DNA of 62,669 nt, filler included, from Diploschistes diacapsis (Eukaryota): assembly GCA_023645945.1 (NCBI GenBank). It is 16 parts of 16 records of this genome, joined end to end, with 100 filler letters (N's around TTAATTAATTAA, not from the genome) between each part and the next. Parts side by side here need not be neighbours in the genome. Positions count along the whole stretch, not along the records: positions 61,297 to 62,669 come from JALAIB010003222.1; 15 more parts are not named here. One strand, 5' to 3'. The notes beneath the pieces were generated by a model, which saw only the letters and a list, made by a program, of their open reading frames with translations, had not been told where the DNA came from and did not search any database. Below are positions 46,547-62,669 of the stretch, one piece after another. The translations under genes were made by a program, and so were the position numbers. How positions within the stretch are numbered: the first letter of the stretch is position 1; each line of letters opens with the position of its first letter.

Positions 46547-46802
46547 TCAGTAGATTTACGGAAATGTAGTATCCGTGTCAGTATCCGTGTTTTAAATTTT
46601 TTAATTGTAGTGTCCGTGTCAGTGTCCGTGTTTTAAATTTTTTAATTGCGGTGTCCGTGTCCGTGGATTTACGGAAAGGTAGTGTCCGTGTTAGTGTCCG
46701 TGTTTTAAAATTTTAATTGTCGTGTCGGTTTCAGTGTCCTTTTTTTGAAAATTTTTGCTGCAGTTTCCGTGTCAGTGACCGTGGCACGAAACGGCCAGCC
46801 TA
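46547..46802. mobile_element. End of a TIR element (terminus TAGGCTGGCCGT) with subterminal GTGTCCGTGT arrays
   Basis: Tandem TCCGTGT motifs separated by AT spacers, ending ...ACGGCCAGCCTA. Same terminus at 54760, 59987, 61659. Confidence 0.75.
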
Positions 46803-49400: not shown

Positions 49401-49569
49401 NNNNNNNNNNNNNNNNNNNNNNNNNNNNNNNNNNNNNNNNNNNNTTAATTAATTAANNNNNNNNNNNNNNNNNNNNNNNNNNNNNNNNNNNNNNNNNNNN
49501 ACCACAAACCCATTCACTCAGCCCCTCCCAAGAAAAACCCATCCAAAACCCTTCTAACACACCACCAAA

Positions 49570-50379
49570 ATGGTCCACCTCTCCAGCACCACCGCCGCCA
49601 TGCTCCTGGCCCTCGCTTCCCTCTCCCTCGCCATCCCCTCCCCCCTGACCCCAGACCCTAGCGGCGCCAAGAACGTCGGCAACGGCCACGGCGCCCAGTT
49701 CATCACGGGCGCCTGCCTGTCCAACGCCGACTGCCAGTCCGCCTGCTGCGCCGGGCCCGTCGGCATCTGCTCCGGCGTCGGGGCCCAGACGCAGCAAGGG
49801 AAGACGGGATGCGGCTTTTCTGCTTCTTCTTCTTCTTCATCATCTTCATCATCTTCTGGCTCCACGGGCTCGTCCGGCTCCTCAGCCGGCTCCGCCGGCT
49901 CAGCATCCGCGAGCGCTGCCAGCCCCGCGGCGTCGAGTGCAAGTGACAGCGGCAGCGGCTCAGGCGGCGATCTCGCGCAGACCGAATCCTCCAGCGCGGC
50001 CGGGGCCGCAAACGTCGGCAACGGCGCCGGCAAGCAGTTCATCACGGGCGCGTGCCTGAGCGACGCGGACTGTGCCAGCGGCTGCTGCGCGAAACCCAAC
50101 GGCGAGTGCAGCGCCGCGGCCGTTGCCCTTGAGAGCGGGAAGCAGGGGTGTGGTTTTTCGGCTTCGGCTGCGGGCTCGGGCTCGTCGGGCTCCGCTGGCT
50201 CCGCCTCGAGTTCCGCCGCTTCTGGCGCGGCCGGCGCAAGTGCTGCGGGCACCCCGTCGAGCGCAAAGGGCCCGGTGCCGGACGGGGGCGCGTGTACCCA
50301 GAATGTGGAGTGCCAGGCCGGGTGCTGCGAGTCGAACGGGCTGTGCAGCAATGCTGTGGCGGGGTGTGTTGGGGTGTGA
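49570..50379 (+). CDS. Secreted Cys-rich repeat protein, BAS2 (biotrophy-associated secreted protein 2)-like
   Basis: Signal peptide; two modules NVGNGxGxQFITGACLSxADCxSxCCA...CS......GKxGCGF separated by Ser/Ala/Gly linkers; third short module CTQNVECQAGCCESNGLC. Confidence 0.8.
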   Translation: MVHLSSTTAAMLLALASLSLAIPSPLTPDPSGAKNVGNGHGAQFITGACLSNADCQSACCAGPVGICSGVGAQTQQGKTGCGFSASSSSSSSSSSSGSTGSSGSSAGSAGSASASAASPAASSASDSGSGSGGDLAQTESSSAAGAANVGNGAGKQFITGACLSDADCASGCCAKPNGECSAAAVALESGKQGCGFSASAAGSGSSGSAGSASSSAASGAAGASAAGTPSSAKGPVPDGGACTQNVECQAGCCESNGLCSNAVAGCVGV

Positions 50380-50976
50380 GCGAGGCGGGCGGGGAGATGA
50401 AGATGGAGATGTGTTGTGGCAGGGGTATGGATTCGATACGGGCATCGGTATCTGGTATCTGGTATGGGATGGGATGGTATCGTTACGGCATACATCGGCG
50501 ATGGGGACGGCGTTCGTTTTGGGAAGGGCGGGTTGCGTCAGGTACGTGGGGTTAAGTTAGCTGGGCTGGGCAGCAAGTCAGGGACTGAGTATTGAGACTG
50601 AACGGTGGTGGGATTTGGAATACGAGGTTCGGGGACGACGCTGGGACAACGGGGTCGGTCGATGTAAGATAGGAAACGATGAGACGGAATAGGATAGAAG
50701 GAGATAAAAGTCGATCCGAAGTCGACTCTTCCCACATAACTACAGCATTTTATCCCGCAACGCCTCCATCCCGCTTCTCCTTCTCCTTCTCCTTCCTCCA
50801 GTTAACTCCTCTTTCCTTTTTTTTTTTTTTTTTTTTTTTTCCCCTTCCTCCCACACGTTCCTATCCATCCCTCCCCNNNNNNNNNNNNNNNNNNNNNNNN
50901 NNNNNNNNNNNNNNNNNNNNTTAATTAATTAANNNNNNNNNNNNNNNNNNNNNNNNNNNNNNNNNNNNNNNNNNNN

Positions 50977-54759: not shown

Positions 54760-54924
54760 TAGGCTGGCCGTCACGGACACTGACACGGCCGTGGCAGTAT
54801 CCCGTGTTTTGAAATTTTTAATCGTAATATCCGTGTCCGTGCTTTCATTATAGTGCAGTATCCGTGGAAATGTCCGTATTTTAAAATTTTTAATCGTAAT
54901 ATCCGTGTCCGTGTTTTTATTATA
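54760..54924. mobile_element. TAGGCTGGCCGT-terminus element end, interrupted by a pogo insertion at TA 54923-54924
   Basis: TAGGCTGGCCGTCACGGACACTGACACGGCCGTGG followed by TCCGTGT arrays. Confidence 0.75.
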
Positions 54925-55301
54925 ACGTGTTTAACGGGGAACCGGGCCATCCCCAGAAATGGGCCATCTCTCATTACAACTTTCATCTTTTTCTTCGATT
55001 TTTTCAATAATGACTACCTCGTATCGTAATAATTCGATTTTAATAAAATTTAATATCAACGATTATTTATAGGTCCTAAATTTTTAATAATATATTAACG
55101 TTCGAGAAGTTGCTCGCGCATTTAAAATTTTTCGTTTAATTATTATGCGTCGATTTATTAAAGTATAATTACGTTTTAATAATCACGAATCGAATTAAAT
55201 CTTTTTAAATTTTAAAGAACAGATATTAATACGATTGATTACACGTCTTATATAAATTAGCTTTCTTGCATCGTCTACGTTAATAATAGAAATAACCGAA
55301 A
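54925..55301 (+). mobile_element. pogo/Fot1 family-1 5' end with transposase N-terminal HTH relic
   Basis: TIR ACGTGTTTAACGGGGAACCGGGCCATCCCCAGAAATGGGCCA, then degraded VREVARAFKIFRLIIMRRF resembling the psq-type HTH (.R.AA..F.VP.STL..R). Confidence 0.75.
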
Positions 55302-59823: not shown

Positions 59824-59987
59824 TTATAATATAATAAAAACACGGACACGGACATTATAATTAAAAAATTTAAAACATTAATATTAACACGGACACTATA
59901 TTACAGTAAATTCACTAACACGGACATTACGGCTAAAAATTTTAAAACACGGATACTGCCACGGCCGTGTCCGTGACGGCCAGCCTA
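59824..59987. mobile_element. TAGGCTGGCCGT-terminus element end
   Basis: ACACGGACAC arrays ending CCGTGACGGCCAGCCTA. Confidence 0.75.
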
Positions 59988-60238
59988 TTCTTATCTTTTG
60001 TTACGATAACTATTTTTTTAAACTTTTTAACGAGCTTATATCGTATCGCGCGATAATTATCGTTATTACAAAATAAACATCTTTTTTTAGGCTAAAATAG
60101 CGGCGTCGTTTTTCGTCGGATCGTTCTTAAAAATGGAAACGGAAGCCTCTAAGATACTATAAACTTTCATGACGTAAAAAATATATTACAATTTCCTACT
60201 TCTATCAGCTTATCTTGCTTATCGATAAGCCTATTAAA

Positions 60239-61196
60239 TGTTACGATCCAAGTACCGCACTTAGCACGTCCCAGCTTTCTTTATATATAGTTTAATCACG
60301 GTAACACGGGTTACGTGATTCGTTTATTACTCGAATTCATTCTTATAAACGGCGAGTAAATTATCGCTATCGCTCAATAATCGCGTTTATTTTCGTAAGC
60401 GGTAAGCCTCGAAAACATCGCTCGCTAAATCTGTAATAAACGGCGAGCGAGTTAATTATACATAAACGCAATTCTTCCTTTATAAAAGAAGATATGTTTA
60501 TTTTTATAAATAATTTTAATTATTATTCGAGATTAATTTATATTCGTTATTTTTATTACTAAAACCTTCTTTTTAGAAATAATTTAAGATTTATAACTGC
60601 TCTATCTTCTTTTTCTACTTATATTCTTTTTTTAACGAGATTAAACCCACCTTAATCAATACCTCGTGTCTATATTATAGAAATTAAGATTATAATACTT
60701 AAACACCCTCAAAAATAAGTATCTTAAATAGCACAATCGAGAAATCGTTCTTAGAAACTAAATCCGCATTATTTTAAATATCGAAACGAACAGTAACGCC
60801 ACCGAACGAAAACGACGTGCTTATAATAAATATTACGAAAGCTAAAAGAAACGACTCTAAAAATAACGCTGAAACCGACGAAAATAGAACTTTAAAAAGG
60901 CTCGTTATCGAGGACCCCAAACTAAATAAATATTACGGAAATCGCAAGAAATTAAAATATTAATTATTATAACTCGCGTTATATTTTTATTAAAACCCTC
61001 ACATCAAAAACGAACAAAAAGAAAAAATTATCTTCGCCGTAAGTTTCATGCGTGACCGCACATTAATATAAATAAAATCCCATCTATAATCTTATTTAAA
61101 GAATAAAAAAATAATATAAAAATATTCGCCAGCTTCGCGAAATTTAAGAAACAAATTAAATTAACCTTTAATATCATTAACGATAAAGAATACGTT
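60239..61196 (+). mobile_element. Gypsy 5' LTR (family B, 60239-60697) followed by gag N-terminal relic
   Basis: LTR B termini, then degraded PKLNKYYGNRKKLKY*LL*LALYF...EKIIFAVSFMRDR, typical of fungal gypsy gag. Confidence 0.8.
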
Positions 61197-61379
61197 NNNN
61201 NNNNNNNNNNNNNNNNNNNNNNNNNNNNNNNNNNNNNNNNTTAATTAATTAANNNNNNNNNNNNNNNNNNNNNNNNNNNNNNNNNNNNNNNNNNNNATTA
61301 TAGTAAAAGCACGAAAATACTTTATTTTTTTTTAATATTTTTAAAATTATGACGTTTATTTCTCGCGTTTTTATTTTTA

Positions 61380-61659
61380 AAAAAGTTTTTTTTAAAATAC
61401 GGACACGGACACGGACATTATATTATAATAAATACACGGACACGAACATCGTAACTAAAATTTTTAAAACACGGATATTAATACGAACATTATATTTCCG
61501 TGAATTCACGGACACGGATCCTGTAATTAAAAATTTTAAAATATTGATATTAATACGGACACTGTACTTCCGTAAATCCACGGACACGGACACCGCAGCT
61601 AAAAAATCTAAAACACGGACACTGACACGGCCGTGTCAGTGTCAGTGACGGCCAGCCTA
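61380..61659. mobile_element. TAGGCTGGCCGT-terminus element end
   Basis: ACACGGACAC arrays ending GTCAGTGACGGCCAGCCTA. Confidence 0.75.
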
Positions 61660-61776
61660 CTCTACTGTATAATAATATTAAGTAGTATCGTCACTAGTGA
61701 TATCGTTAGGAAAACGAGATCGATAAAACTTATTGATAAGTAATTTTAAATAAATTCAGCGACTATCATACATTAT

Positions 61777-62007
61777 TTAAGAACAAAGAACATGTCCATT
61801 TTTCTTATTATAAACACATGTATAACCCGTCTTCGTGCAAACATCAGTTTTATCGCATTTTTTGATCATATCAGGTACTGTGAAAAAATTGCGGCATGTG
61901 TTGTCCGTTTTATCGCACTTTCCCGACATAAAATCATCCCATATTGATGACCTAGCGTATGCGCTCAGGCATACAACAGCAGTAAGAACAAAATATAAAA
62001 ACTGCAT
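61777..62007 (-). CDS. Small secreted Cys-rich peptide, PAF/AFP antifungal-protein-like (gamma-core)
   Basis: 76 aa; signal MQFLYFVLTAVVCLSAYA; mature region has 6 Cys spaced C-x6-C-x12-C-x5-C-x6-C-x10-C with GKCDKTDNTC gamma-core and CTK motif. ORF retains TG/CA dinucleotides amid RIPped DNA; TATAAAA on the minus strand at ~62285-62291. Confidence 0.78.
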   Translation of the reverse strand: MQFLYFVLTAVVCLSAYARSSIWDDFMSGKCDKTDNTCRNFFTVPDMIKKCDKTDVCTKTGYTCVYNKKNGHVLCS

Positions 62008-62160
62008 TATGCTGGCAGATAAAAGTAAGTTTGTTTCTTAAATTGTGTTAAAAGTGGAGGCCGGGTAGCTGAATAGGCAACAAAGGATTGGTGAAATAAA
62101 TGGTAAATATCTTACAGTAATAATAAGGTAATATTATTATCGGAGGTAGAGAATGAAGAT

Positions 62161-62233
62161 GAAGATAGTATCAATGAAGATAGTATCAATGAAGATAGTA
62201 TTAATGAAGATAGTATTAATGAAGATAATTAAT
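62161..62233. repeat. 15-bp tandem repeat (GAAGATAGTATYAAT)4+
   Basis: Direct reading. Confidence 0.9.
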
Positions 62234-62507
62234 ACATAGATGGAGATTGAGACTAAAGCTGTAGATGATAGGAGATGAAAGATCTTTTATAGATACTTTC
62301 ACCTGATTATTATTAATAATCAATATTACCTAGTAATTTCCGATAATGTTGGATCTCTTAATCCAATATTGTTTGTCCCACAATCCAGTATAAAAATTGG
62401 ACTAAATAATCCCATAATGATCCAATAATCCAAACATCCTTCCTAGTGTAAACATAAAAATAGGCGGTAGACTTGGTAGGGGTGGTCCCCTCAGGGCAGC
62501 TCCATTT

Positions 62508-62669
62508 TGTTATGATCTCTATCTCTACAACGTAGACACGAGGTATTGATCAAGATAGGTTTGGTCTCTGGTAAAAGAGGAGTATAAAAAAAAGAAATAA
62601 ATCGATAACAGATCTATTTTAATCTCTAAAAAGATTATTATCTAATAATAAAAATAAACGATTATAAAT
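62508..62669 (-). mobile_element. LTR family B end
   Basis: TGTTATGATCTCTATCTCTACAACGTAGACACGAGGTATTGATCAAG identical to 56620. Confidence 0.8.

Follow-up and report, generated by a model that had tools for sequence, protein, structure and literature searches.

Members of the AFP/PAF family of antifungal proteins display a six-cysteine frame, published as CX6CX(11-12)CX(4-9)CX6CX(10-13)C, together with a γ-core motif defined as GXC(X3-9)C (PMC5106034). The same source, whose pattern comes from a survey of 48 orthologues, counts 49 orthologues in 35 species, all of them Ascomycota, and places these proteins mainly in the Eurotiales, with some in the Sordariomycetes, Leotiomycetes and Dothideomycetes (PMC5106034). 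Class A and class B proteins are described as carrying both a pre- and a pro-sequence and as being encoded by genes with two introns, while class C genes have one; PeAfpA (6.64 kDa) has a pI of 9.5, PeAfpB (6.57 kDa) a pI of 7.6 and PeAfpC a pI of 7.7 (PMC6182064). A second described system concerns genome architecture. According to a preprint on Peltigera, genes for secreted and antimicrobial proteins lie at shorter distances from transposable elements (TEs) than the remaining genes do in 41 of 41 genomes (10.64898/2026.06.16.732702). The main text of that preprint contains no occurrence of "antifungal protein" or "PAF" (10.64898/2026.06.16.732702); the main texts of preprints on lichen secretomes and antimicrobial proteins likewise make no mention of the AFP/PAF family, their supplements being places where such genes may be listed, and a literature search on lichens and antifungal proteins gave no AFP/PAF protein among the matches listed. 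The candidate gene described here, from a lichen-derived assembly, would bring a distant relative of the first system into a setting resembling the second.

The window analysed is a stretch of 62,669 bp (1-62669) from the Diploschistes diacapsis assembly, comprised of 16 contigs with N44-TTAATTAATTAA-N44 spacers between them: two contigs of about 21 kb with 51-53% GC, and a further fourteen that are each 1373-1378 bp long and for the most part at 29-38% GC. Because the spacers join separate contigs, the 15 remaining contigs are not physical neighbours of the open reading frame (ORF) of interest and distances across the spacers are meaningless; its own contig, 61297-62669 (1373 bp, 31.6% GC), is the sole physical context of the gene. 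This contig bears a complete single-exon coding sequence at 61777..62007 on the minus strand, with 76 codons from ATG to TAA and an A at position -3 of the ATG. The first-pass annotation of this DNA had reported an intact, intronless ORF of 76 residues on a contig of about 1.4 kb, and its coordinates and quoted sequence are both reproduced, with the signal and the whole domain lying in one unbroken frame from ATG to stop. The ATG, a signal-like N-terminus, six cysteines, the single Trp codon and the stop codon are all intact, and the stop is placed one residue past the last Cys. The length of the ORF is in itself unremarkable, since 185 of 2000 shuffled contigs yield an ATG-initiated ORF of at least 76 residues. 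Two other frames on the contig, one of 68 codons antisense to the peptide gene (61835-62041, plus strand) and one of 99 codons running through 72-bp repeat units (61349-61648, plus strand), look like by-products of the sequence and not like genes.

Genes of an ordinary fungal kind are present on the two large contigs, and their products include a P4-ATPase, a Fungal_trans (PF04082) transcription factor, a leg-like lectin and a protein with a TRF domain. No shared repeat or read was found to link the 1.4-kb contig to them, and 63% of the words sampled from the contig are present in one public run labelled "lichen metagenome". The GC content at third codon positions (GC3) is 0.34 in the ORF, compared to values of 0.49-0.77 for eleven long ORFs located on the two fungal contigs, and because it is so much lower, a different compartment or a different organism is possible: the contig may come from an AT-rich compartment or, equally, from another organism in the sample. 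Among the small contigs, most of which are AT-rich, the one at 49501-50876 has a GC content of 62.6% and holds a stop-free frame of 327 codons (49554-50537, minus strand) with no Pfam match; it may also come from another organism in the sample.

Residues 1-18 of the protein (61954..62007, minus strand) form a predicted signal peptide. Kyte-Doolittle means over nine residues range from 1.5 to 2.6 across this region and then remain below 0.2, the hydrophobic core spans residues 3-14, and the sequence A-Y-A directly precedes residue 19, features that by the -3/-1 rule would place cleavage before that residue. The signal peptide claimed earlier is thus upheld, as a prediction drawn from hydropathy and the A-Y-A end. 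The predicted secreted product, residues 19-76 (61780..61953, minus strand), consists of 58 residues with a mass of 6651 Da, six cysteines, a net charge of +3 and a pI of 8.6, and it contains 7 Asp alongside 8 Lys, 2 Arg and 1 His. The first-pass annotation had counted Lys, Arg and Asp correctly, but the low net charge that it listed as unusual is not so; a pI of 8.6 falls within the published range of 7.6-9.5, between that of PeAfpA and those of PeAfpB and PeAfpC, and the charge is therefore not exceptional. The mass is likewise of the family kind, at 6.65 kDa beside the 6.64 kDa of PeAfpA and the 6.57 kDa of PeAfpB.

The γ-core of the peptide, G-K-C-x6-C, occupies residues 29-38 (G29, C31 and C38; 61894..61923, minus strand), fits the GXC(X3-9)C definition and includes the sequence D-N-T-C, as in NFAP and AfpB-type chains. 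Only 10 residues separate the predicted signal cleavage from the γ-core Gly, with no dibasic site between, and the ORF contains no pro-peptide with a dibasic end, in agreement with the earlier statement that an obvious Kex2-ended pro-peptide is lacking. The cysteines are spaced x6-x12-x5-x6-x10, and both this spacing and the γ-core are as first reported. When the six frames of the 62.7-kb window were scanned for the published AFP/PAF cysteine pattern, a single stop-free match was obtained, compared to none in 200 block-shuffled windows, making the match significant. Cysteine-stabilised α/β defensins require a C-x3-C in the helix paired with a C-x-C belonging to the last strand; the six cysteines of the peptide form neither of these motifs, and assignment to that class was rejected.

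Searches for related sequences return this family repeatedly, each time faintly. At E<=10, the only Pfam family matched is PF11402 (Antifungal_prot), with an E-value of 0.037 and residues 28-73 of the protein aligned on profile positions 3-50 of 50. The comparison with this family suggested in the first-pass annotation thus points to PF11402 and to no other, but at 14.7 bits it falls under the curated gathering cut-off of 25 bits. A phmmer search of all PDB sequences at E<=10 gave three chains only, NFAP (5oqs), a PeAfpB chimera (9fqg) and 7zut, with E-values of 1.3-3.6 that are individually non-significant, whether the whole protein or residues 19-76 served as query. These alignments hold all six cysteines in register with one 2-residue gap. 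Identity to NFAP amounts to 16 of 48 aligned query residues, 10 of which are not cysteines: the γ-core Gly, the D-N-T before Cys2, the Lys before Cys3, a Lys and a Gly in the Cys4-Cys5 loop, the Tyr after Cys5, an Asn, and a Val located two residues before the last Cys. All ten occupy the same aligned columns as in AfpB-type chains. In the ESM Atlas, the full-length protein returned one listed cluster, named "Antifungal protein", with PF11402 on 100% of its 79 members, at a score of 0.80 that is to be taken as a lead only; residues 19-76 alone gave no usable match there.

NFAP, the best PDB sequence match, resembles the peptide in its aligned cysteines, in the G-x-C...D-N-T-C arrangement of the N-terminal part, in the V-x-C near the C-terminal end and in length, with 57 residues in mature NFAP and 58 in the predicted product. 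The spacing of NFAP, as read from the alignment, is x6-x12-x7-x6-x10, and since the spacings are otherwise identical, the two frames differ only in the Cys3-Cys4 loop, which is 2 residues shorter in the peptide. The peptide further differs from NFAP by about 7 extra N-terminal residues and by having no separate pro-peptide. In PAF, the cysteines are spaced x6-x13-x7-x6-x10. Class A PAF from Penicillium chrysogenum and AFP from Aspergillus giganteus have the family cysteine pattern, as published, and the γ-core in common with the peptide (PMC5106034), and both are absent from the PDB matches at E<=10. Class B proteins of the PeAfpB/AfpB type (9fqg, 7zut) share with it the six-cysteine frame and a γ-core region of the K-D-N-T-C type, and class B is known to include proteins whose pI is near neutral to moderately basic, as in the PeAfpB value given above (PMC6182064). 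Class A and B genes, as described, combine two introns with a pre-pro leader (PMC6182064), whereas the present gene has neither, nor a dibasic site.

No closer relative was found by a word-index search for shared words. A phmmer search of 1.84 billion representatives gave one match, a tandem-repeat protein of 1662 residues, and no AFP relative at E<=0.001; the match was judged spurious, as a unit of about 110 residues is repeated many times in that protein and 10 stretches of it were matched by query residues 10-52. Among metagenome contigs, a protein-guided scan produced 124 pattern stretches, none of them confirmed, and a scan with a degenerate pattern of 30 nt, designed on G-[EK]-C-x2-[KTN]-D-N-T-C, produced 29 loci with an AFP-like frame at 0 of the 29.

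The peptide therefore displays one part of what characterizes the AFP family, namely the cysteine spacing, the γ-core, a predicted secretion signal and a small basic mature protein (~6-8 kDa), and lacks another, namely a gathering-level score to PF11402, a pro-sequence and the one or two introns. Because its score stays under the curated threshold and it has neither the pro-peptide nor the introns of the family, it is not filed as a Pfam-grade member. The earlier description of a divergent PAF/AFP-like peptide fares well in that PF11402, the NFAP and AfpB-type PDB matches and the cysteine pattern are concordant, although each match is weak. As the cysteine frame, γ-core, size, charge, secretion signal and all of the weak sequence matches agree, distant homology to the AFP/PAF family is the best reading of the sequence and is likely.

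Since no family sequences were found from which to build an alignment, AlphaFold2 was run on single sequences, both for the full protein and for the 58-residue product. The full protein gave a low-confidence model (pLDDT 51) in which residues 30-32, 37-39, 64-67 and 72-75 form short strands. For the 58-residue product, the best model reached a pLDDT of 67 and the other four 45-51; this best model, itself of low confidence, is helical in the middle, at mature residues 18-40, and has after that only a C-terminal hairpin. Neither run gave a five-stranded barrel. Foldseek gave no match in the PDB at E<=0.001, and an exhaustive VIA search gave 18 chains at Z>=2, the best at Z 2.5 and none of them an AFP. 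The confidence of the models is too low for them to carry weight for or against the five-stranded AFP-like barrel on which the first-pass annotation had made its reading depend.

The internal duplication that the first-pass annotation had noted is present as two exact copies of the peptide KCDKTD, at residues 30-35 (61903..61920, minus strand) and 50-55 (61843..61860, minus strand). The copies are 20 codons apart and each begins one residue ahead of a Cys (Cys1 and Cys3, respectively). When the mature peptide is shuffled, an exact 6-mer repeat arises in only 9 of 200000 trials. At the nucleotide level, the two 18-nt copies differ at three places, all synonymous third positions, a faint hint in the sequence of constraint. 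Known AFPs among the PDB matches echo the same symmetry faintly, as C-x3-D-N-x-C and C-x3-(A/D)-N-x2-C, and because they do, the repeat suggests intragenic conversion or duplication acting on a frame that was already pseudo-repeated.

The gene is located between the termini of two high-copy repeats. The left repeat end (61390..61659) has its terminus, ...GGCCAGCCTA, at 61659, which leaves 117 bases to the stop side of the ORF, and it bears 3.3 copies of a 72-bp subterminal unit rich in CACGGA along with a 17-nt palindrome, CACGG..CCGTG, at 61614-61647. This boundary is marked by three other copies in the window that end alike and then diverge, and by 36 contigs of a public run, X1, that have loose ends there. 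The same repeat end also occurs on the small contigs at 59824-59990, 46547-46740 and 54760-54925, and thus on at least four contigs in all. The right, very high-copy repeat has its start at 62508, at a distance of 500 bases from the ATG, begins with TGTTATGATC, is LTR-like and runs off the contig (62508..62669); its boundary is likewise fixed by three other window copies, and loose contig ends in two public runs mark both boundaries. The first-pass annotation had placed the ORF 118 bp from the terminus of a TIR element and 500 bp from an LTR, and both distances are right, but the TIR and LTR classes are plausible and unproven: one kind of end was seen for the left repeat, no transposase was found for it, and the TG... 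start is the only LTR feature seen in the right repeat.

Two further observations concern the right repeat. Its first ~60-75 bases (62508-62584) reach a summed depth above 1e6 in a second public run, X2, with many copies diverging after 62568, an abundance that suggests either a short element of very high copy number or an LTR tip that is conserved and also present in a related organism. A copy at about 60536-60695 (minus strand), on the contig 59824-61196, shows G-to-A and C-to-T changes of the RIP type relative to three other copies, with TGTTATGATCTC turned into TATTATAATCTT.

Read depth separates the ORF from both of these repeats. The flanking repeats, which run X2 carries as well, sum to depths of 1e4 to >1e6 across the two public runs, and of 1e4-1e5 in X1. 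The stretch 61665..62032, comprising the ORF with about 112 bp beyond its stop and about 25 bp ahead of its ATG, lies under one X1 contig only. That contig, 518 bp long, matches 61700-62217 with no differences, and the X1 bins across 61757-62032 have a constant depth of 31.9, the depth of this single contig. Because the depth stays at 31.9, the ORF lies outside any repeat family of at least 80% identity in X1; the match is not an independent confirmation of the sequence, as X1 may be the source sample. No X2 contig fell on 61711-62032, and two further runs, X3 and X4, gave almost no matches, blanks that count neither for nor against the ORF. Within the window, a tblastn search gave one self-match to the ORF and otherwise only matches at E>=2, and hence no second copy. 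Given single-contig coverage, compared to thousands of contigs on the flanks, and the lack of a second window copy, the ORF is not a recurrent internal piece of a transposon; the first-pass annotation had named such recurrence as something that would overturn its reading, and the result favours that reading. Neither a transposase nor a reverse transcriptase (RT) domain was found on the contig, and 13 ORFs of the small contigs gave no Pfam match.

On the 5' side, the segment 62033-62507 is moderately repeated, with recognisable repeats from about 25 bp upstream of the ATG, and any promoter would for this reason consist of repeat-derived DNA or be enclosed by it. At about 280 bp upstream of the ATG there is a TATAAAA sequence, and between the two stands a 15-bp tandem repeat present in 4.6 copies (62159..62227, 152-220 bp upstream). 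The earlier suggestion that the gene was retroposed or mobilised by a TE finds no such trace: no poly(A) follows the stop, a single contig covers the ORF where thousands cover the flanks, and no target-site duplication was seen around it. Retroposition or transposon capture is thus unsupported. The "two-speed" architecture described in Peltigera, in which small secreted-protein genes lie near TEs, resembles the position of the peptide gene within a few hundred bases of repeats, and as the preprint reports such proximity, the setting matches an emerging pattern instead of breaking one, with the proviso that whole genomes are compared there and a single 1.4-kb contig here.

The (CpA+TpG)/(ApC+GpT) index, read as a RIP-type signal, is 1.37 in the ORF and 1.30 in the 500-bp 5' flank, against 0.54 in the 3' flank of 117 bp, 0.64 in the left-hand repeat and 0.69 in the right-hand one, all of these stretches being short and the indices correspondingly noisy. 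The gene had been described as intact inside RIP-degraded DNA, and this holds for the ORF, which keeps its CpA and TpG, and for the repeats and the 3' side, which are depleted, but not for the 5' flank; since the index is also high there, the ORF does not form an isolated unmutated island towards its 5' side.

How these features are to be combined depends on whether the frame is a gene at all, and if so, whether it is a working one. The sequence favours, as on balance probable, a real single-exon gene that encodes a distant AFP/PAF homologue and presumably is expressed. A frame left open by chance in AT-rich repeat debris would explain both the non-significance of ORF length alone and the lack of homologues, but such a frame would hardly be expected to carry the family cysteine pattern (0 of 200 shuffled windows), to match at E 0.037 the very Pfam family whose cysteine pattern it fits, or to combine a hydrophobic N-terminus with an exact six-residue repeat (9 of 200000 shuffles), making this origin very improbable. 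Even more remote is an internal ORF of a TE or a cargo gene in many copies. The location between two repeat termini does invite this explanation, as do three X1 contigs in which the end of the left repeat and the start of the right one are joined with almost nothing between them (with sides of only 23-24 letters); against it stand the depth of 31.9 over 61757-62032, compared to 1e4-1e5 for the repeats, the lack of a second window copy (other tblastn matches at E>=2), and the negative results of the domain searches, which gave neither transposase nor RT on the contig and no Pfam match in the 13 small-contig ORFs.

The two other alternatives concern the ancestry or the present state of the cysteine-rich frame. 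A secreted effector or antimicrobial peptide might have converged on the AFP spacing with another fold, for instance one with helices, as seen at mature residues 18-40 ahead of the hairpin in the best single-sequence AlphaFold model; the Pfam score under the cut-off and the library search without an AFP relative at E<=0.001 would agree with this. The helical model is, however, of low confidence, with four of the five models at pLDDT 45-51, the ten non-Cys identities to NFAP fall at columns common to AfpB-type chains, and no C-x3-C or C-x-C motif is present, all of which leaves convergence doubtful. Somewhat less so, but still unlikely, is a true AFP homologue that has become a silent relic, its open frame stranded in repeat-rich, RIP-affected and probably heterochromatic DNA, unexpressed and drifting to AT. 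Such a relic is consistent with repeats at about 25 bp upstream of the ATG and 117 bp past the stop, with a GC3 of 0.34 that is far under that of the ORFs on the fungal contigs, with the lack of a relative in any search, and with the ease with which an open frame of this length arises (185 of 2000 shuffles). It is less readily reconciled with an ATG, signal-like N-terminus, six cysteines, Trp codon and stop position that are all intact, with the undepleted CpA/TpG index of 1.37 in the ORF, or with three differences between the 18-nt copies that are all synonymous.

If the working AFP/PAF-like gene is accepted, its source would be the ascomycete of the lichen-derived assembly, provided that the small contig belongs to the same fungus as the large ones. 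The pre-protein would lose its 18-residue signal peptide and be secreted as a six-cysteine, moderately cationic miniprotein of about 58 residues. By analogy to AFPs, this product may adopt a small disulfide-locked β structure with an N-terminal γ-core, in which both the fold and the cysteine pairing are predicted from the family, and its targets outside the cell would plausibly be competing fungi or other inhabitants of the thallus.

A more far-reaching reading would make the peptide the first sighted member of a separate AFP/PAF-like lineage in lichen-associated fungi, intronless, without a pro-peptide, reshaped by the KCDKTD duplication or conversion within the gene, kept intact among RIP-affected repeats, used by the thallus fungus to control other fungi or partners in the lichen, and derived from a processed copy; taken as a whole, this is a long shot. 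The case rests on one contig of 1.4 kb, and the peptide is nonetheless one that could reasonably be chosen for expression and assay. The AFP/PAF family is under study for antifungal leads, and a divergent lichen-derived relative, if true, would widen its sequence space, having a Cys3-Cys4 loop of reduced length, a moderate charge and no pro-peptide. Such a relative would further provide a concrete candidate for the idea that lichen fungi keep genes for secreted antimicrobial proteins beside their transposons.
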